Numbered from the stretch's first letter, positions 13,319 through 22,604 are shown. The stretch is 64,000 nucleotides of DNA from Candidatus Latescibacterota bacterium (GCA_965205975.1 OZ242195.1:5376001-5440000); one strand, 5' to 3'. Notes: a model not told the origin generated them from the letters alone. Numbers and translations: made by a program.

Positions 13319-13361
13319 AAGGTTTTTCGCTATTTTGTCAGATAAAAGGAGGTGGTTCGGC

Positions 13362-13988
13362 ATGAAAGGTGTTTTCATTTATTGGGACAATTCCAATATT
13401 TTCCATGAAGCACAACGGCTGGCAGAGGAACGGCGCGAAGGCCCCAATGCCCGTTATCGCGTGCGTATTAACTTTGATAATATACTGCGTCTGGCGCATG
13501 CTGACCGCCCTTTGAAGAAGGCTCTTGCCGCTGGCTCTGTGCCGCCGGAGATGCGCCAGTTGTGGAATCGGATGGAGAGCAAGGGGGTGGAAGTCCATCT
13601 GTTTGACCGGGGTGAATCTGCGCGTGGTGAACAGGAAATGCCTGACCGGGTGTTGCAGTTGCGGATGCTGGAAGATGCGCTGGATTATAACGGCAATCCG
13701 GGTATTGTGGTGTTGTTGACGGGCGATGGCGCAGGTTATCTGGAAGGCGCGGGTTTTCACAGTACGTTGGAGCGCATGCACAAGCGCGGCTGGCGGGTGG
13801 AAATTCTTTCCTGGAAGCATTCCTGCAACCAGCGAATGCGCAAGTGGGCGCAGGAAAACGGTGTGTTTGTGGCGTTGGACGACTTTTACGAGGCCATTAC
13901 ATTTATGGAACCGTCCAGGCCAGGGGCTGAGCTTGCTGTTCCACGCGATTCCGCAGAATTAGACTTGTCGAAAAGGCCAATGGCTTGA
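13362..13988 (+). CDS. NYN domain (PIN-like) putative ribonuclease
   Basis: IYWDNSN, QEMPD, VLLTGDG, GWRVEILSW, FVALDD acidic motifs; SD AGGAGG. Confidence 0.88.
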   Translation: MKGVFIYWDNSNIFHEAQRLAEERREGPNARYRVRINFDNILRLAHADRPLKKALAAGSVPPEMRQLWNRMESKGVEVHLFDRGESARGEQEMPDRVLQLRMLEDALDYNGNPGIVVLLTGDGAGYLEGAGFHSTLERMHKRGWRVEILSWKHSCNQRMRKWAQENGVFVALDDFYEAITFMEPSRPGAELAVPRDSAELDLSKRPMA

Positions 13989-14023
13989 TTGGGGAAGCAA
14001 ATTAACAAGTCGTAGGTATAGAA

Positions 14024-14803
14024 ATGTCAAAAATAAAAAGATGGACGCGACAGGAGTTGCTTGTAGCGTTTAGGCTTTACTGTCAAATACCATTTGGCAG
14101 ATTGCACGCACGAAATCCAGAGATTATTAAGATTGCCGAACTCATTGATAGAACGCCATCCGCATTGGCAATGAAATTAACGAATATTGCAAGTCTTGAT
14201 CCGGTTATAATCTCGACGGGTCGCAAAGGGTTATGGCGGGCATCTAAAGCGGATAGAGAAATGTGGCAAGAAATGCAAAATAATTGGGAAAATTTTGCAT
14301 TAGAGTCAGAAAACACTATCAATTCTATTCTGCAAGGTAGCGAGTCGTATGTTGCGGAAAATGAAAGTGCATCTGAATACCAGGATTACACTGGTCAGGA
14401 TAGAATTGTGCCAACCAAAACACGAATTGGTCAGAAGTTTTTCAGGAAGTCGGTGATGAGTGCTTATAGATATAGGTGCTGTATCACTGGCCTTGCCATG
14501 CCAAAACTCTTAGTAGCGAGTCATATTGTGCCGTGGCGTGATGATCCAGGGAATAGACTCAACCCGAGGAATGGGTTGGCTTTGTCAATACTTCACGACA
14601 AGGCGTTTGATCTTGGAATGATCACGATTAATGATGATATGACTGTTCGGGTATCACGGAAGGATTTTAGGGTGAAAAATAAATTTTTTGTGACTGCTTT
14701 GAGAAACTATGACGGAAAAATGATAGAGTTACCAGATAAGTTTCAGCCACATGAGAACTTTCTTGCATATCATCGTGAAAGGATATTCACGGGAAACCGC
14801 TGA
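14024..14803 (+). CDS. HNH endonuclease (predicted restriction-endonuclease-like)
   Basis: RIGQKFFR...Y..RCCITG..LLVASHIVPW...NGLAL...HDKAFD.G; N-terminal RTPSALAMKL.N.ASLDP domain. Confidence 0.9.
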   Translation: MSKIKRWTRQELLVAFRLYCQIPFGRLHARNPEIIKIAELIDRTPSALAMKLTNIASLDPVIISTGRKGLWRASKADREMWQEMQNNWENFALESENTINSILQGSESYVAENESASEYQDYTGQDRIVPTKTRIGQKFFRKSVMSAYRYRCCITGLAMPKLLVASHIVPWRDDPGNRLNPRNGLALSILHDKAFDLGMITINDDMTVRVSRKDFRVKNKFFVTALRNYDGKMIELPDKFQPHENFLAYHRERIFTGNR

Positions 14804-14812
14804 GAAGAAAGC

Positions 14813-14878
14813 ACCGATCTTTGAAGAAGTCACTTGCCGTTGATTTTGTGCCACCAGAGATGCGCCAGTTGTGGAATC
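14813..14878 (+). pseudogene. 66-bp degenerate copy of an internal segment of the NYN gene (13504-13569)
   Basis: 56/66 identical by manual alignment; reads RSLKKSLAVDFVPPEMRQLWNH* versus RPLKKALAAGSVPPEMRQLWNR. Confidence 0.85.
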
Positions 14879-14879
14879 A

Positions 14880-15761
14880 TTAGATGAATTCTTGGCCGAT
14901 TTTCCATACCCCTTTCTCGCGGAAAGCGGGAATGGTCTGGCGGCGGGCGGCGTTGGTGATAGCAGGTGCAGAGAGTCCATTCTGTCTGATGTAATCCGAT
15001 AGCTTGATGATTGCCTCTCCCTTCAAATAGCTCAATCGCTTGTGCAACGATTCTGTGAGAGCCAGTGATAGAATTCCCTCCATCGTCCTGGTCGTTCTGT
15101 TATCTCCGTAGTCTCTGAATGCCCGATAGTACGTTTCTTTCTCCGAGTTGCGGATGATAAGGCGCGGTAGGCCGAGTTGCAGGAGTTGAAAGTTGATAAT
15201 GACCCGCCCCATGCGGCCATTGCCGTCGCAAAAGGGATGAATGGTCTCGAAATCCAGATGAAATCGGGCAATTTTATCTATGAAGTAAGTGTCGAGATCA
15301 CTGGAATACTCGACGAGGATATTATCTATCATGCGCTCTACATGCTCGGGTGCTGGCGCAATATGAGTGCCTACCCGCACGTATTCTCCCTGCTGGCGAA
15401 AGCGCCCTGCAATGTCATCGTTAATGCCGCCGATAAGCATTTGATGCAAGAGTAGTATCAGGTCTTTGTTCAGTTCGCTATCTTTGGCTCTGTTGCGCTT
15501 ATATTCTGTGACACGAGCCAGGTTTTTCGCCTCAAAGACTTCCCGCACAGATACATTCCGAGATAGCATCTGTTCCAACAGGATTTTCTCTGTTTCATTG
15601 AGGGTGAGGGTGGAGTTTTCAATGGCGTTCGAGTTGTACACGCTCTCAGGTACCTCTACTTCGTCAATCATCGACAGTAGCGATTCTTTACCCTGACGCA
15701 AGATATCGTACTCTCGTTTCAGATCTTGAATGCGGTTTTTTATCGGTTGTCTGCTTGCCAT
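14880..15761 (-). CDS. Fic family protein (class II) with putative C-terminal HTH-like tail
   Basis: HPFCDGNGRMGR Fic motif; N-terminal inhibitory SNAIEN; tail LSDYIRQNGLSAPAITNAARRQTIPAFREKGVWKI. Confidence 0.93.
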   Translation of the reverse strand: MASRQPIKNRIQDLKREYDILRQGKESLLSMIDEVEVPESVYNSNAIENSTLTLNETEKILLEQMLSRNVSVREVFEAKNLARVTEYKRNRAKDSELNKDLILLLHQMLIGGINDDIAGRFRQQGEYVRVGTHIAPAPEHVERMIDNILVEYSSDLDTYFIDKIARFHLDFETIHPFCDGNGRMGRVIINFQLLQLGLPRLIIRNSEKETYYRAFRDYGDNRTTRTMEGILSLALTESLHKRLSYLKGEAIIKLSDYIRQNGLSAPAITNAARRQTIPAFREKGVWKIGQEFI

Positions 15762-15767
15762 ATCATT

Positions 15768-15860
15768 AGGATACCCTATTCACTGTATATTGTCAAATTT
15801 TAGTGAATAGATAGGTCAAAATGGACGTCATTCACTGTATATTGTCAAATTTTAGTGAAT
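15768..15860 (-). promoter_or_regulatory. Sigma70-type promoter of fic (probably leaderless) overlapped by two identical 31-bp operator-like repeats
   Basis: TTGACA (15796-15791), 17 nt, TATCCT (15773-15768), ATG 7 nt downstream; ATTCACT-N17-AGTGAAT at 15778-15808 and 15830-15860. Confidence 0.7.
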
Positions 15861-15894
15861 GGATGGGCAAAAAAGAGTGCCATTCACGGTTTTT

Positions 15895-15940
15895 TCAGGT
15901 TAAGTAGCGAAAATTTTGTATGTGAAAGCCTTTCAATATC
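15895..15940 (-). pseudogene. 5' stub of a probable AAA/OLD-type ATPase gene
   Basis: SD GAGGAG, 8 nt, then ATA (decayed ATG?) LKGFHIQNFR YLT*; resembles the MLKxxHIxNFR N-terminus of ABC/AAA ATPases. Confidence 0.5.
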
Positions 15941-15944
15941 GCTT

Positions 15945-16724
15945 TCACTCCTCGCGTGGCGCACCCGCCACTTGTAACGAAGTGCCGTGTATTTGATTGT
16001 GTTTTATATCGGGATATTCCTGCCATTGCCTTCCATCCAGCGTGTTGCCGCCAGCCTTGGGTGTGCGACCACCCCATTGCTTAAAGAAGAAAGCAACATT
16101 CTGCGCCTGACATTGATCGCGCAATTCACGTAGCCATTCCACTTTGACTGGACGTGCCCCCGGTCCGCTCTCTCCTCCGGCGATTATCCAATGAATATCC
16201 GTAAGATCCACCGTACCAAGTGCATCGAGTAACGGCTCGAATGAAACAAAGCGCGTTGAGGCGTTGGTCTGTCTCAAGTGACGTAGGCGCGTCATGGCCG
16301 CCGCGTTTTCGATGGAAACACCGAGCCAGATATGTGGCGGGGCGGACAGTCTCCCATAGCGTTGATGGACAAAATCGCGCATCAGCGAACTGCGCTTGGT
16401 CAGCACTTGATAGATGTGCCAATCCGCCTGCTCCATTGTATCAAATACACGATGGATGTACTGAGTTGGTATGTCCTTATGGAACAGGTCGCTCATCGAA
16501 TTGACAAAGATGAGTTGCGGACGCCGCCAGTGCCTGGGTTGCTCAAGGCGTTCGGGGCGAAGCGTGAGATCAAAACCCGTTTCAAAAGGGTTGCCCTTGA
16601 CGCCGCGGAAACGCTCCGATAATCGCTCGGCATAGCAATGGTCGCAACCCGCACTCACCTTTGTGCAGCCGGTGACCGGATTCCATGTGCTGTTGGTCCA
16701 CTCAATAGTGCTTTTACGCGACAT
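15945..16724 (-). CDS. DUF5131 / phage Gp37-Gp68 family protein
   Basis: IEWT..TWNPVTGCTKVSAGCDHCYA, FVNSMSDLFH, QVLTKR, FVSFEPLL, GGESG, FFFKQWGG. Confidence 0.95.
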   Translation of the reverse strand: MSRKSTIEWTNSTWNPVTGCTKVSAGCDHCYAERLSERFRGVKGNPFETGFDLTLRPERLEQPRHWRRPQLIFVNSMSDLFHKDIPTQYIHRVFDTMEQADWHIYQVLTKRSSLMRDFVHQRYGRLSAPPHIWLGVSIENAAAMTRLRHLRQTNASTRFVSFEPLLDALGTVDLTDIHWIIAGGESGPGARPVKVEWLRELRDQCQAQNVAFFFKQWGGRTPKAGGNTLDGRQWQEYPDIKHNQIHGTSLQVAGAPREE

Positions 16725-16978
16725 GTAATCCCCCTATGTGCCACTTGAAGCGTCTAAAGATTACTGCACATAAGTATAGTTTGTTCTTGCCGAAAGAGCA
16801 AGTATGTGGTATTTTCTCTCAAAAAAAGATAGGTTATATTCGGCTTATGATACTCGGCTAATGTGATGATAAGCCGAAGTCCCGCCGGTTAGGCAAATTA
16901 ATCTTACGACCTTGACAAATTGTCAATCTCAATCTAATTATATATGTCAACCTTTAATTGTACATTGGAGGTGGTTGC

Positions 16979-18106
16979 ATGAGTGAATCTCTTAATCAAG
17001 AGGTGTACAACCGCGATAGCAGTCCATTCAATGCACAAGTGTTTGATCTGTTTTGCAGCATTGGAGGTTTGACCTATGGACTAAAAAGGGCTGGAATCGC
17101 AGTCAACGCCGGTCTGGATATTGATGGTTCGTGCCGTTACGCTTATGAAAATAACTGCGAAGCGACTTTTATTGAAGCGGATATTAGAGAAATCTCTTTT
17201 TCAGATATTTCAAGGTATTTTAATGATGCGGAATATCGCGTGCTTGTGGGTTGCGCACCCTGTCAACCGTTCTCCAGCCACACAGCCAAAATGAAGTCTG
17301 GTGAGTCGGATTCAAGGTGGAACCTGATAGATGAATTTCTGAGAATAATTCTTGAGGGCAGACCAGAGATTATCTCTATGGAGAATGTGCCCCAACTCAT
17401 GGATAAGCCAATTTACAATAATTTTAAGCACGAGTTAGCCGATGCAGGATATAGTATTTCTGATGGGATTATATCCTGTGCCGGCTTCGGGGTTCCGCAA
17501 AGCCGAAGTCGCTTGGTTATGCTGGCATCTTTGTTGGGCAGAATTAATATGCCGAAATCCAACACCCAAAAGCCCAAAACGGTTAGGCAAGCAATTGGAC
17601 ACCTCGCACCTCTTGATCAGGGGCAATCAAACGAGGATGATTTTTTGCATGTTTGTTCTCGATTGGAGTCAATCAACCTAAAACGCATCCGGGCTTCTAA
17701 GCCCGGTGGAAGTTGGCGAGATTGGCCTACTGAATTATTGCCAGATTGCTACAAAAAAGATAGTGGCTTAAGCTATGGGAGCGTTTACGGGCGTATGCAG
17801 TGGGATAAGCCAGCACCTACGCTGACCACGCAATTTTATCGTTATGGAACTGGTCGCTATGGGCATCCAGAACAAGATCGTGCTCTGAGCTTGAGAGAAG
17901 GTGCAATTCTCCAAACTTTCCCCGAGGAGTATCAGTTTGTTGCTCCCGATGAAAAAGCGTCATTTTCGAGAATTGGCCGTCAAATAGGCAATGCTGTTCC
18001 GCCATCTTTGGCTTATGCTATTGGGAAAGCAATTACAGGTCATATAAAAAAAAGGGCAGCAAAAATGCTTGAAAGACTTAAGCTGTCTGTCTTTTTTAGT
18101 GCCTGA
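16979..18106 (+). CDS. dcm: DNA (cytosine-5) methyltransferase 1
   Basis: Motif I DLFCSIGG (variant), IV GCAPCQPFS, VI MENV, VIII PQSRSR, IX R.LSLRE...LQTFP, X QIGNAVPP; SD GGAGG. Confidence 0.93.
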   Translation: MSESLNQEVYNRDSSPFNAQVFDLFCSIGGLTYGLKRAGIAVNAGLDIDGSCRYAYENNCEATFIEADIREISFSDISRYFNDAEYRVLVGCAPCQPFSSHTAKMKSGESDSRWNLIDEFLRIILEGRPEIISMENVPQLMDKPIYNNFKHELADAGYSISDGIISCAGFGVPQSRSRLVMLASLLGRINMPKSNTQKPKTVRQAIGHLAPLDQGQSNEDDFLHVCSRLESINLKRIRASKPGGSWRDWPTELLPDCYKKDSGLSYGSVYGRMQWDKPAPTLTTQFYRYGTGRYGHPEQDRALSLREGAILQTFPEEYQFVAPDEKASFSRIGRQIGNAVPPSLAYAIGKAITGHIKKRAAKMLERLKLSVFFSA

Positions 18107-18133
18107 TAAATAGAAGAAAATGGAAATCACAGC

Positions 18134-19396
18134 ATGAATAGGGGCCTAAAATTTCTGGATCTTTTCGCGGGTGCTGGAGGGCTGTCCGAGGGATTTATAC
18201 AAGCGGGATTCGAGCCTGTCGCACATATTGAATCAGATAAAGCGGCATGTTTCACTCTACGCACACGGATGGCATACCACTATTTGAAGGACCGTGACAG
18301 GGTAGAACTGTATGCAGATTATCTGAATGGAACACTGAGCCGTCCAGATTTCTATGAACAAGTTCCGGAACGGATTATCGAATCAGTCATCGATGCCGAG
18401 ATAGGTGACAAAACACTGCCGGATATTTTTCGGCGGGTTGACGCTCTACTGGATAATTGTAGGCTTGATTTGATTGTCGGTGGGCCTCCTTGCCAAGCCT
18501 ATTCCCTAATAGGTCGTTCTCGTGATTTGAATAGTATGAAGGGGGATAAGCGTAACTATCTGTATAACTATTACGCCGAATTTTTGAAGAGGTACAAACC
18601 ATTATACTTTGTCTTCGAAAATGTCACCGGTCTTCTATCTGCTAGAAATGGGGATGGCAGCCGCTATTTTGACGCCATGCAAAGCCTCTTCCGCGAATGT
18701 GGTTACAAAACGGACTTCCTGAAGTTATCAGCAGAGGATTATGGCGTCCTACAGAGGCGAGAAAGAATCATTCTTGTCGGAAGAAAGGGTAAAATGACCG
18801 GCTTTTATCCAGAGCCAGACAAGTGGAATCCTAATGCCTGTGTCAGGGAAATATTCTGTGATCTGCCCATTATCGCCGCGGGTGAAGGCGACCCAGGCCC
18901 ATGCAATGTCAGGCCATATCTTGGAACATATCAGTATGAAGCAGGGATAAGAGATGACGAGCTTCCAGTCACTTGGCATCAAGCAAGACCTAATACGGAA
19001 CAAGACCTTGAAATTTACCGGAGAGCTGTTAATCTCTGGAATAAAGAAAAGACTCGTCTAAATTACAATATGCTTCCGGAGCATCTGAAAACACATAGAC
19101 ACCGAAACTCGTTTCTGGATAGGTTCAAAGTCGTCGCTGAGGATCTGCCGTTTTCTCATACTGTAGTTGCCCATATCGCCAAGGACGGTCACTATTACAT
19201 TCATCCGGACATTAATCAGAATCGATCAATCACACCTAGAGAGGCTGCGCGATTGCAGACATTCCCAGATGATTATTACTTTGAGAGCGTCAGATATGTT
19301 CCCGGACGCACGCCTGCTTTCAGTCAGATCGGCAATGCAGTGCCTGTGCTTCTGGCACGGAAAATAGCTGATAAATTGCAGGGGGTCTGGTTATGA
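18134..19396 (+). CDS. dcm: DNA (cytosine-5) methyltransferase 2
   Basis: DLFAGAGG, GGPPCQAYS, FENV, QRRER, REAARLQTFPD, QIGNAVP. Confidence 0.95.
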   Translation: MNRGLKFLDLFAGAGGLSEGFIQAGFEPVAHIESDKAACFTLRTRMAYHYLKDRDRVELYADYLNGTLSRPDFYEQVPERIIESVIDAEIGDKTLPDIFRRVDALLDNCRLDLIVGGPPCQAYSLIGRSRDLNSMKGDKRNYLYNYYAEFLKRYKPLYFVFENVTGLLSARNGDGSRYFDAMQSLFRECGYKTDFLKLSAEDYGVLQRRERIILVGRKGKMTGFYPEPDKWNPNACVREIFCDLPIIAAGEGDPGPCNVRPYLGTYQYEAGIRDDELPVTWHQARPNTEQDLEIYRRAVNLWNKEKTRLNYNMLPEHLKTHRHRNSFLDRFKVVAEDLPFSHTVVAHIAKDGHYYIHPDINQNRSITPREAARLQTFPDDYYFESVRYVPGRTPAFSQIGNAVPVLLARKIADKLQGVWL

Positions 19397-21546
19397 GCAC
19401 AAGCGGAACATACAGAATAAGACCGGCTGGTCGGCATATCCTGACCATTGGCCGTGACCTGATTCAGGATGTCTATGCGGCGGTCGTAGAACTGGTGAAG
19501 AATGCTTATGACGCCGATTCTCCTGATGTAAATATCAAATTTATGGCCAATCCTGACCACAGCGGATATTCCATCATTATCTCAGACCATGGTCACGGAA
19601 TGTCCAGGGATACTGTCATTAACAAGTGGATGGTGCCGTCAACCCGAGACAAACTTGATCGGCGCACGAGTCCTTCCGGAAGGATTATGCAGGGACGTAA
19701 GGGGGTGGGGCGCTACGCCGCATCCATTCTCGGCACAGACTTGCTTCTCGAAACAGTGACTGCTGAAGGCGAGAAGACAACGGTCTATGTTGAGTGGGAG
19801 AATTTCGAGGCTGCCGAATATCTGGATGACGTGGAAATCCTCATTGAAACCACTGAGGTATCCGAACCGCCGGGTACACAACTGACTATGGCTGGGGATA
19901 TTGAGCTTCTTGCTGACTGGGACAAGAAACAGTTCGAAAAACTTCGTTTTGAACTAAAAAAACTGAAATCGCCTGTGAGTGCTGCTCTTAGCGATGATGA
20001 CTTTTGTATCATTCTGGAGGTTGAAGGTTTTCCTGCCGTAGAGGACATTAGTGAAACTGTCGAGTCATTTCCGATCTTCGATCTCTTTGATTATAAGATA
20101 GCTGGCAAAATTAGTGCTGATGGCAATGGTACCCTGACGTATTCGTCTCAGAAAGTTCGTAATATCGCCGATGAGAGTATTACTTTTGATTTTGGTCAGC
20201 CTACCGAATGCGGTGAACTTGATATTGATGTACGGGTGTATGACCGTGACAAAGATGCTATTGATTCTTTGATAGGACGTGGTCTTAAAGATGAATCTGG
20301 CAACTATGTCGGAAAACTTCAAGCAAGGCAACTTCTCAACGCTTCCAACGGCATAGGTGTTTACCGAAACGGATTTCGTATCCGGCCGCTGGGTGATCCA
20401 GACTTTGATTGGTTGAAACTGAACGAGCAGCGTGTTCAAAACCCATCGCTCAGAATCGGTAGCAACCAAGCAATCGGATATGTGCAGATTCAGTCAGATG
20501 AGCAATCCGGTCTAATTGAAAAAAGTGCCAGAGATGGACTCAGGGAAAATGCGGCCTTTAGTCATCTAAAAGAAATTACCACAAAGGTCATTGCTGAACT
20601 CGAAACGCGACGGTTCGAGTTCAGAATGAAAGCCGGTTTGAGCAGGCCTGTTATTAAAGTCGAACGCGAATTGGAACGCCTTTTTTCGTTTCAGGAACTG
20701 AAACAGGATGTTATGGAAAGACTTATCAGATCTGGAATTGATCCCAAAACCTCTAATAAAATTATTGATATCATTAGTCGTGAAGAAGAGGATAAGAATA
20801 AAATTGCCGCTGAAATCCGTCAAGCTGTCGCCATTTATCAGGGACAAGCTACCTTGGGGAAAATCATTAACGTGATCCTTCACGAAGGCAGACGGCCACT
20901 CAATTACTTCCGAAACCAAATACCAAACCTTCGGTACTGGTACAAATCATTTCGGAAAACTGAGAATTTAGAAAATCTTGAGAAATCTCTATCAATTGTT
21001 GAGGGCATAGGCATGAATGCAGAGTTTTTTGTCAATCTCTTCAACAAACTTGATCCTCTGGCAGCGGGGAAGCGCTCTAAAAGAGAGTCCCTTGCGCTGA
21101 AGAAAGAGATAGAGAACGTGCTTGCTGTCTTTGAACAAGAAATGAAATCTCAGAAGGTAATCGCTGAAATTACAGGATCCGACGACTTTAGATTTTCCTC
21201 TTGGCGTCAAGATATCAGTGCGATTTTCACAAATCTTGTGGACAACAGTCTGTACTGGATGAACGAAAAGAATACGCCCAAGCGAAAAATCATTATTGAA
21301 CTCGCAACAAACAAGAATTCTCTTCTTCAGATTGATTATCATGACACCGGGCCAGGTATTGAACCTGACCACATTGCAAGTGAAGTGATTTTTGAACCTG
21401 AGTTTACCACCAAACCATCTGGTACTGGTCTGGGGCTGGCAATTGCAGGTGAGGCTGCCGCACGTAACGATCTTGAATTGAAAGCTTTTGAATCTCAAGA
21501 AGGGGCTTGGTTCAGGTTACAACCTAAAACGGAGGATGAGGAATGA
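19393..21546 (+). CDS. Soluble fusion of an N-terminal GHKL (MORC/MutL-like) ATPase and a C-terminal histidine kinase
   Basis: N-terminal ELVKNAYDAD, DHGHGM, GRKGVGR, GTQLT; C-terminal H-box LHEGRRPL, NLVDNS, DTGPGI, FTTKPSGTGLGL; no TM; ATGA overlap with dcm2. Confidence 0.9.
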   Translation: MSTSGTYRIRPAGRHILTIGRDLIQDVYAAVVELVKNAYDADSPDVNIKFMANPDHSGYSIIISDHGHGMSRDTVINKWMVPSTRDKLDRRTSPSGRIMQGRKGVGRYAASILGTDLLLETVTAEGEKTTVYVEWENFEAAEYLDDVEILIETTEVSEPPGTQLTMAGDIELLADWDKKQFEKLRFELKKLKSPVSAALSDDDFCIILEVEGFPAVEDISETVESFPIFDLFDYKIAGKISADGNGTLTYSSQKVRNIADESITFDFGQPTECGELDIDVRVYDRDKDAIDSLIGRGLKDESGNYVGKLQARQLLNASNGIGVYRNGFRIRPLGDPDFDWLKLNEQRVQNPSLRIGSNQAIGYVQIQSDEQSGLIEKSARDGLRENAAFSHLKEITTKVIAELETRRFEFRMKAGLSRPVIKVERELERLFSFQELKQDVMERLIRSGIDPKTSNKIIDIISREEEDKNKIAAEIRQAVAIYQGQATLGKIINVILHEGRRPLNYFRNQIPNLRYWYKSFRKTENLENLEKSLSIVEGIGMNAEFFVNLFNKLDPLAAGKRSKRESLALKKEIENVLAVFEQEMKSQKVIAEITGSDDFRFSSWRQDISAIFTNLVDNSLYWMNEKNTPKRKIIIELATNKNSLLQIDYHDTGPGIEPDHIASEVIFEPEFTTKPSGTGLGLAIAGEAAARNDLELKAFESQEGAWFRLQPKTEDEE

Positions 21547-22604
21547 GTGTGTTGCGACTGCTTATAGTTGAGGATGATGAACAGGATCTATCTACCTGTA
21601 GAGATACTGTCGAAAGATACGAAAATGAAAAGCAGCGCAAAGTCGAACTCGTCGAATGCAAGGATGTCAGTGCGGCTTTCGAGTGCCTTGACAATTCCTT
21701 CGATGGTGCGATTATTGACCTGAAGCTCGGGGATCAGGGCGATGAAGGCAATCAGGTTATATGTAAAATCGAAGATTCACAGTTCCGGATTCCAGTCTTT
21801 ATTTTAACTGGAACCCCTGTCAACACGGAGTTTACACATATAAAAGTTTTCAAAAAAGGGGACTCTGGAGCAGGATACGATGATTTATTGGACAGATTCT
21901 GGGATATTTATAACACGGGGCTAACTCGTATCATGGGTGGCAGGGGCATCATCGAACAAACATTGAGCCAAGTATTTTTGGGAAATCTCCTCCCACAGAT
22001 AGATACATGGATACATTATGGTGAGGACGATTCTTCCAGAACTGAAAAGGCTCTTCTTCGGCACACGCTGAATCATCTGCTTCAGCTTCTTGACGATGAC
22101 GCAGACAGTTGCTTTCCCGAAGAAGTCTATCTGCACCCGCCGCTTAATGACGATATCCGGACTGGTAGCCTTGTTAAAGAAAAGGAAAGTGGGAAGTGGT
22201 TTGCTGTCATGAGTCCAGCCTGCGACCTTGTCGTGAGGGAAGATGGCAGCCGTAATACTGACAGGATTCTTATTGTCGAAGTTGATCTTGGAACGACGTT
22301 ATTTCCGTGGTTTGATGATACAAATCTGAGTAAAACCAGAAAGGGAGAGTTGAAACGAGCATTCGGGAACAACAAATCAGCCTATCATCACTGGCTTCCT
22401 AAGACGGATTTCTTTGAAGGCGGTTTCCTCAATTTTAGAAAACTTTTCACTTGGGAAATTGAACAATTCCAAGAAAAATTCCACACCCCTCCTGAAATAC
22501 AAATCTCGCTATCTTTTGTGAAGGATATTGTGGCGCGTTTTTCATCATACTACGCTCGTCAGGGACAGCCAGATATCGATTTTGACAGATTTATCAACTC
22601 TTGA
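21543..22604 (+). CDS. Response regulator: REC domain plus uncharacterised C-terminal domain
   Basis: LLIVEDD, IIDLKL (phospho-Asp), ILTG, FKK; C-terminal VMSPACDL and RFSSYYARQGQPD; no HTH; ATGA overlap with kinase. Confidence 0.85.
   Translation: MSVLRLLIVEDDEQDLSTCRDTVERYENEKQRKVELVECKDVSAAFECLDNSFDGAIIDLKLGDQGDEGNQVICKIEDSQFRIPVFILTGTPVNTEFTHIKVFKKGDSGAGYDDLLDRFWDIYNTGLTRIMGGRGIIEQTLSQVFLGNLLPQIDTWIHYGEDDSSRTEKALLRHTLNHLLQLLDDDADSCFPEEVYLHPPLNDDIRTGSLVKEKESGKWFAVMSPACDLVVREDGSRNTDRILIVEVDLGTTLFPWFDDTNLSKTRKGELKRAFGNNKSAYHHWLPKTDFFEGGFLNFRKLFTWEIEQFQEKFHTPPEIQISLSFVKDIVARFSSYYARQGQPDIDFDRFINS

Follow-up and report, generated by a model that had tools for sequence, protein, structure and literature searches.

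We analysed a 64,000-nucleotide stretch of a Candidatus Latescibacterota genome (GCA_965205975.1, OZ242195.1:5376001-5440000; this whole stretch is called the window), in which four co-oriented genes encode two C5 DNA methyltransferases (dcm1 and dcm2), a soluble fusion of a GHKL ATPase with a histidine kinase, and a response regulator, here called the receiver. A preliminary description of the sequence had given the coordinates, spacing and motifs of these genes, all of which were reproduced, and had credited the receiver with an unknown output domain. Structure prediction now assigns to that domain a putative fold shared with MazF, PemK, CcdB and Kid toxins, and comparison of related loci reveals a conserved unit of dcm2, kinase and receiver. 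The features, all on the plus strand, are:

16979-18106, +: dcm1, C5 methylase, 375 amino acids from ATG (PF00145 and TIGR00675)
18080-18103, +: putative remnant of a deleted nuclease gene of BbrUII/HgiDII type, forming the present dcm1 tail (MAFFT alignment to stubs at related loci L003 and L002)
18134-19396, +: dcm2, C5 cytosine methyltransferase, 420 amino acids, a core gene of the cassette (PF00145, E 9e-56; TIGR00675)
19393-21546, +: kinase, a soluble paraMORC-like GHKL ATPase fused to a histidine kinase, 717 amino acids (Pfam, NCBIfam)
21543-22604, +: receiver-effector, 353 amino acids, with a receiver (REC) domain, helical linker and predicted MazF-fold output (predicted model; conservation in 131 sequences)
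22107-22601, +: output domain, receiver residues 189-353, predicted MazF/PemK/CcdB/Kid fold

The two methylase genes are separated by 27 nucleotides (18107-18133), and ATGA overlaps join dcm2 to the kinase (19393-19396) and the kinase to the receiver (21543-21546). GC content of the four genes is 44-46%, compared to 51% genome-wide. None of the four is an endonuclease gene, in agreement with the earlier view that the operon holds no restriction endonuclease. Contigs from RNA libraries (three runs, two studies) overlap parts of all four genes, such contigs not being proof of transcription, and a promoter scan was at chance (9 found, 10.0 expected).

A predicted toxin-like fold in the receiver output domain

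The full-length receiver model (predicted local distance difference test score, pLDDT, 95.1) comprises a REC domain (residues ~1-130), a linker of two long helices (~135-186) and an alpha/beta domain. The REC domain matches known structures at Z 13-15 and conserves E10, D11, D59, T89 and K105, with D11 invariant and D59 invariant in 131/131 sequences. Because REC domains swamped the full-length fold searches, the output domain was refolded alone from a 60-sequence alignment of residues 189-353 (pLDDT 89.7). When this model was searched against 48,161 PDB representatives, all 11 matches with Z of at least 8 were toxins of the MazF, CcdB, Kid or PemK type. The strongest was Staphylococcus aureus MazF (4mzm_A; Z 10.9, root-mean-square deviation 3.0, 104 residues aligned, 11% identity); CcdB followed at Z 9.9, the type III toxins ToxN and AbiQ at Z 7.5-4.6, and unrelated folds at Z 4.1 or below. 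Foldseek on the PDB ranked CptN and MazF at the top, with one match at E<0.001, and re-alignment of the chains it ranked placed 146 of 996 at Z of at least 8 (best 11.0), all 50 of those listed having this fold. The top named matches in a library of viral structures (BFVD) were PemK-like. Together, these searches indicate a predicted MazF/PemK/CcdB/Kid fold, replacing the "unknown" of the preliminary description. MazF and CcdB matches lie within one Z unit of each other, so the fold does not decide between an RNase and a gyrase poison.

The output domain is under strong constraint (ratio of nonsynonymous to synonymous substitution, dN/dS, 0.05-0.14 against sister loci). G208, P225, C227, R339, G341 and P343 are invariant in 131/131 sequences, and D228 is kept in 129/131. 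A sequence search of PADLOC with the domain gave no match. A homodimer prediction scored 0.01 against a mark of 0.42, which we take as no verdict and count neither way.

How far does this domain extend? The ESM Atlas returned clusters without names and, at a score of 0.75, below threshold, a pointer to Response_reg_2 (PF19192) proteins, which were then examined by profile comparison. The C-terminal region of Response_reg_2 aligned to the output domain with hhalign probabilities of 95.0 and 96.6, whereas reversed and N-terminal controls stayed at or below 0.5; the match is local, covering 35-76 columns around G...P-x-C-D. Conversely, 117/120 PF19192 proteins match the output-domain profile and 112/120 carry [PQ]-x-C-D together with a terminal R-x-G, although these 120 are homologues of one query and so sample one part of the family. 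By homology, the C-termini of Response_reg_2 proteins probably share the MazF fold. Standalone homologues of 185-200 amino acids align with probability 98.3 over 142 columns, and 15/16 match the profile.

Several more distant loci were also inspected. Four related genomes carry, between housekeeping genes, a three-gene run of a TIGR04255 protein, a gene of ~140-190 amino acids and a standalone MazF-fold homologue of 185-187 amino acids (L115:1908-3630, L116:1812-3468, L117:3064-4747, L118:3068-4931); its last two genes match nothing in Pfam, NCBIfam or PADLOC, and the run is possibly a toxin-antitoxin-chaperone triad. A second, divergent kinase-receiver branch keeps the same gene order (L119-L122); in L119, L121 and L122 it is followed by a dcm and a DrmE-family gene, and the L120 receiver is truncated to 250 amino acids. 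At L099:5635-13775, an Acinetobacter baumannii record encodes a distant dual-GHKL kinase with a weak HEF_HK match and a 646-amino-acid receiver, convergent with a PAPS-reductase-domain gene and a 1014-amino-acid protein, not with a methylase. By eye, the L099, L100 and L101 receivers have the C-D and late Arg motifs; they gave no profile score and were left out of the counts. The L102 and L103 receivers (~227 amino acids) likewise gave no profile score.

A conserved unit of methylase, kinase and receiver

The kinase combines two ATPase modules, HATPase_c_3 at residues 29-141 and HATPase_c at residues 607-712. Invariant in 40/40 aligned sequences are E33 (in ELVKNAYDAD), N37, the N-terminal glycine motifs, H497-E498 and the C-terminal N, G1 and G2 boxes; PDB profile matches are to histidine kinases and HtpG, and the N-terminus weakly matches NF050001. 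Maximum 19-residue hydropathy is 1.17, implying no transmembrane segment. Thus the dual ATP-binding architecture described earlier, with its catalytic Glu, its own His and no transmembrane sensor, is borne out. Between the modules, following the GHKL domain, K377 is kept in 39/40 and R380 in 40/40 sequences, and this middle region, judged from sequence, may be S5-like as in paraMORC proteins. The dN/dS of the kinase against sister loci is 0.11-0.17.

The best PADLOC model for dcm2 is DrmMII (E 2e-165), motif I, PCQ and ENV are intact, and its dN/dS against L001-L003 is 0.13-0.17. CCWGG is the target of EcoRII and of DrmMII in DISARM, and T:G mismatches arising there are corrected by Vsr. Motif avoidance in the genome did not reveal the Dcm2 target (CCWGG ratio 0.84).

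To assess linkage, 96 receiver loci were gathered, one search contributing its best 80 of 217 matches, and grouped into 69 clusters at 90% identity. The counts below include only loci with enough flank, given both as loci and as these non-redundant clusters. The kinase adjoins the receiver in 81/86 loci and 61/63 clusters; in the two clusters missed (L045, L091) a kinase is there and the receiver frame is split or truncated. A dcm2 orthologue lies upstream of the kinase in 56/68 loci (42/51 clusters), and vsr directly downstream of the receiver in 52/82 loci (38/60 clusters), with no vsr match in the window's own genome. Full-length dcm1 occurs in 1/48 loci (1/33 clusters). The conserved unit is therefore dcm2, the GHKL/histidine-kinase fusion and the receiver, with vsr added in most relatives. 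These counts bear directly on the preliminary description. The dcm-kinase-receiver neighbourhood that it marked for checking is conserved, its link to methylation is supported, and its proposed His-Asp relay to an effector is backed by the near-constant pairing of kinase and receiver and by the invariance of D11, D59 and H497. Of its four-gene operon, the co-orientation stands, while the four genes are not a conserved unit: only dcm2, kinase and receiver are, dcm1 coming from another system. The core genes have dN/dS values of 0.11-0.17 against the three sister loci L001-L003, and all are under purifying selection.

In 8 of the 9 clusters without dcm2, other restriction-modification-type or nuclease genes flank the kinase-receiver pair: type I systems (L013, L014, L046), EcoRII with a dcm (L034, L083), Z1/DUF4420/AIPR genes (L035), another dcm (L075) or an HNH gene (L092); none is evident in L051. 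Across the neighbourhoods of the collected loci, no nuclease family recurs beside the cassette except Vsr, leaving the receiver output domain as the only conserved candidate effector.

The cassette is mobile and patchy among close relatives. A close copy is present in 4/21 same-genus genomes, this one counted and with possible overlap with L001-L003, and the output-domain profile matches at least 4/300 genomes of a distant class, including the central genome of that search; with one genome (G289) unscored, both tallies are minimum counts. The kinase matches 41 Campylobacter plasmid records (36% identity). One of these, a conjugative plasmid (L098:1-4454), carries the kinase, a MazF-fold receiver (domain profile E 3e-27) and a dcm in convergent orientation (46% identity to dcm2); a literature listing held no paper centred on this plasmid. 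The family is also found on 2 viral contigs. Its branch studied here is large, with 1544 clusters at 90% identity; at 50% identity, counting matches with E of 1e-30 or lower, there are 406. One protein of 571 amino acids (P0226) joins a dcm2 orthologue straight to the MazF-fold domain and linker of the receiver; it has neither a kinase nor a REC domain and is probably a deletion product, possibly an assembly artefact. Contigs from three further runs carry an extra 26 letters and loose ends around the kinase/receiver junction (window 21540-21622), which suggests that strains differ at the receiver start.

dcm1 and the surrounding island

Sequence comparison identifies dcm1, which is 22% identical to dcm2, as the orphaned methylase of a decayed BbrUII/HgiDII-type restriction-modification system, outside the cassette. 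At L003, dcm1 is followed by a 126-amino-acid stub of a BbrUII/HgiDII-type GHKL nuclease (NF050001, E 3e-52); at L001 and L002, dcm1 is itself reduced to fragments. A plasmid homologue of dcm1 precedes a full 676-amino-acid nuclease of this type, with a full-length NF050001 match whose score is below the curated cut-off. The window retains ~24 bp of the nuclease gene, where contigs of other samples carry indels, and the dcm1 tail and L003 stub have the peptide KLSV in common; evidence for this remnant is modest, 18080-18103 falling below the reach of blastn (its match spans only 18102-18140). With a dN/dS of 0.13 against L003, dcm1 may still function as an orphan methylase, despite a Ser in motif I where the plasmid homologue has Gly. 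Its rarity beside the cassette, its divergence from dcm2 and its nuclease partner in relatives leave unsupported the earlier proposal that the paired methylases serve an asymmetric site. Genome-wide, extreme avoidance ratios were found for GTCGAC (0.02), GTATAC (0.04), CTAG (0.07) and GTGCAC (0.18). The avoidance of GTCGAC, which we take to be the HgiDII recognition site, fits long exposure to a system of the dcm1 type; other enzymes could also explain it.

The four genes share the window with NYN, HNH_2, Fic, DUF5131 and DUF2442 genes. Positions 13335-16724 hold defence-island neighbours: an NYN protein, an HNH_2 nuclease (PADLOC HNH, E 3e-125), a Fic protein and a DUF5131 protein (PDC-M41B/M30B). 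The HNH gene, which the preliminary description had mentioned as upstream, lies 2.2 kb upstream of the operon, beyond two opposite-strand genes, and is skipped in operon-carrying contigs of two other runs (X5, X16), so it is no fixed partner; the slot that contains it is variable, with 7013 different letters there in one other strain. Both dcm1 and this HNH gene are mere island neighbours of the cassette. The nearest named relatives are metagenome-assembled genomes of Latescibacterota and Poribacteria, and most sequencing runs that contain the stretch carry the label of a sponge or marine metagenome.

Related systems, proposed mechanism and competing explanations

The layout has precedents, as the preliminary description had anticipated. 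HEF_HK (PF19191)/Response_reg_2 (PF19192) elements beside restriction-modification systems were described computationally in 2021 (Bellieny-Rabelo et al., PMC8011034), with 644 such regions in 628 strains and no output identified; the sections of that paper covered here give no output-domain fold or function and no experiment. Like our cassette and its relatives, these elements have a soluble kinase with HATPase_c_3, a His box and HATPase_c, an adjacent receiver, a C5 methylase upstream and vsr downstream, and the receivers' C-terminal domain is common to both by hhalign. They differ at the level of family models: PF19191 matches 0/40 kinases here at E 0.1, while weakly matching the L099 kinase, and PF19192 has no match in the window protein or its own genome and is absent among the families listed for the 131 receivers (25 of 42 listed, each of the others with at most one member). 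The receiver here has 353 amino acids and a canonical-like REC domain, compared to ~600 amino acids, and the kinase 717, compared to ~1000 in two inspected PF19192 loci.

Ambrosia (AbrR-AbrA-AbrB-AbrC-AbrD; van den Berg et al., 10.1101/2025.09.30.679545), a related and validated anti-phage system that requires its receiver Asp, likewise clusters a methylase, a HATPase/histidine kinase and a receiver. According to the portions of the preprint available to us, its methylase is of the N6-adenine type, its receiver is REC-wHTH, and an XRE regulator and an HNH nuclease belong to the cluster. In our cassette the methylase is C5, the output has a predicted MazF fold, and neither a regulator nor a conserved nuclease is present; the longest other open reading frame overlapping 16725-16980, where an upstream regulator was sought, has 41 amino acids. 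Ambrosia is set apart here by the described components of its cluster. MORC/paraMORC ATPases, including BbrUII/HgiDII (Iyer et al. 2008, PMC2292703), share the N-terminal GHKL domain with its catalytic motifs and the methylase/vsr neighbourhoods; the C-terminus here is a histidine kinase instead of a nuclease or TIR domain, there is no conserved helicase partner, and neither "two-component" nor "receiver" occurs in the part of that paper covered.

Among toxins, the predicted fold aligns over ~95-108 residues with MazF/PemK/Kid and CcdB (Z 8.3-11.0 for MazF/CcdB/Kid) and with type III ToxN/AbiQ (4.6-7.5). Unlike these toxins, the domain sits behind a receiver, has ~45 extra residues, lacks a sequence-level match and has no adjacent antitoxin gene; the MazF catalytic Arg/Thr positions appear not to be conserved, P-x-C and R-x-G-x-P being invariant instead. 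In type II Gabija, as partly consulted (PMC13069673), GajC uses a divergent MazF-like domain as a required anti-phage component, with a UvrD helicase partner and no phosphorelay or methylase; the likeness to our domain is by description. In the literature searched, most subscription journals being outside its coverage, no receiver of this kind was described with a MazF/CcdB-fold output.

We propose, at roughly even confidence for and against, that this is a mobile methylase-linked cassette in which a toxin-fold effector, controlled by a His-Asp relay, provides abortive-type defence. Dcm2 would methylate host cytosines, and Vsr, in most relatives, would repair the resulting T:G mismatches, the domains of both being recognisable. 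The MutL/MORC-like half of the kinase would stand in for a membrane sensor and read a DNA-linked signal, which could be either the lack of methylation at sites of incoming DNA or a disturbance of a neighbouring restriction-modification system. H497 would then autophosphorylate and pass the phosphate to D59, both residues being conserved. Phosphorylation would in turn control the MazF/CcdB-fold domain, and the infected cell would be arrested or killed; the direction of the relay, activating or silencing, is conjectural. Within this model an RNase with a non-canonical active site is our leading candidate for the effector, at slightly under an even chance; a CcdB-like protein poison is possible and less likely, and some other chemistry using the invariant Cys a little less likely again. 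Because the pair is also attached to unrelated restriction-modification systems, a trigger based on guarding restriction-modification function is no less plausible than one based on reading the Dcm2 mark.

Several observations weigh against this proposal. The domain appears to lack the conserved catalytic Arg and Thr of MazF (described in the consulted part of PMC10893535), with P-x-C-D and R-x-G conserved instead: position 218 is Lys in 31/131 sequences and 248 is mostly Glu or Asp, in a mapping anchored on a V-x-S-P motif shared with E. coli MazF, not on a superposition. Its likeness to toxins is structural only, at 3-16% identity: Pfam PemK (PF02452) has no match among the families listed for the 131 members, a sequence search of the PDB gave no match, and hhalign against 31 PemK/MazF sequences was blank for fused and standalone forms alike. 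A shared fold is also no demonstration of function. Distant branches vary the conserved residues, the output domains of L119-L122 having C-H for C-D and missing the Arg. The Dcm2 mark is not the sole trigger, since 9/51 clusters have no cognate methylase. In the case of Ambrosia, control of transcription is the proposed role of the relay, phages were not protected by methylation, and no host toxicity was reported, as far as the portions consulted go (10.1101/2025.09.30.679545).

One competing explanation is a regulatory module, in which the relay would control expression or activity of adjacent restriction-modification enzymes and the MazF-fold domain would be a non-toxic nucleic-acid- or protein-binding output. 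Such a role was proposed for Ambrosia, whose expression is induced by infection, and by Bellieny-Rabelo et al., to judge from the sections of both covered; the apparent lack of the MazF catalytic pair and the joining of the pair to varied systems (type I, EcoRII, Z1/DUF4420/AIPR, HNH) are in line with it. We nevertheless regard it as unlikely. Apart from REC and the MazF fold, the full receiver model holds only a pair of long helices, and no helix-turn-helix output; Vsr is the one nuclease family that recurs beside the cassette, which leaves no other for the relay to regulate; and the invariant Cys, Asp and Arg are what one would expect of a site for catalysis or binding. A selfish addiction module, in which the methylase, or the kinase state it keeps, acts as antitoxin, cassette loss or dilution frees the toxin-fold effector and phage defence is secondary, would account for the fold of plasmid addiction toxins (Kid, CcdB), the patchy distribution and the Campylobacter plasmid records, of which the inspected one has kinase, receiver and dcm. 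That reading seems to us quite improbable, as most loci lie amid restriction-modification and other defence genes, a two-ATPase relay is elaborate for such a role, and the methylase-less clusters keep full-length kinase and receiver frames.

Two further explanations start from the methylases. The MutL-like ATPase and Vsr might act on T:G mismatches at Dcm2 sites and signal growth arrest, an idea that draws on the frequent vsr directly downstream of the receiver (38/60 clusters) and on the cooperation of MutL with Vsr (noted in the covered part of PMC2292703); with no vsr match in a genome whose cassette genes are nonetheless under purifying selection, and with Vsr accompanying C5 methylases in general, we hold it very improbable. 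Finally, the four genes might act as one unit, with the two methylases guarding two strands of one asymmetric site. Co-orientation, the 27-nucleotide gap, the dN/dS of dcm1 and one DNA contig of another sample that spans dcm1 to receiver speak for this. The single cluster of 33 with a full dcm1, its erosion in L001 and L002 and its place with a BbrUII/HgiDII-type nuclease make it scarcely credible.

Returning to the toxin-fold effector, a wider proposal would unite this family with the Response_reg_2 receivers as MazF/CcdB-fold toxins controlled, without protein or RNA antitoxin, by a His-to-Asp phosphorylation that a DNA-reading MORC-like ATPase sets. P-x-C-D and R-x-G would then form a new active site, and the pair would guard many restriction-modification systems, killing the cell once restriction is blocked or methylation no longer separates self from non-self. 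We advance this joint claim tentatively, with doubt outweighing belief.

Collectively, the layout of these genes was already known; what is new is the assignment of the output-domain fold and its sharing with Response_reg_2 proteins. The assignment turns an "unknown effector" into specific, testable predictions. If true, it would describe a toxin that two-component phosphorylation controls and that is tied to DNA methylation, a design not found in the literature searched, and it would explain how methylase/MORC cassettes free of nucleases could provide defence.

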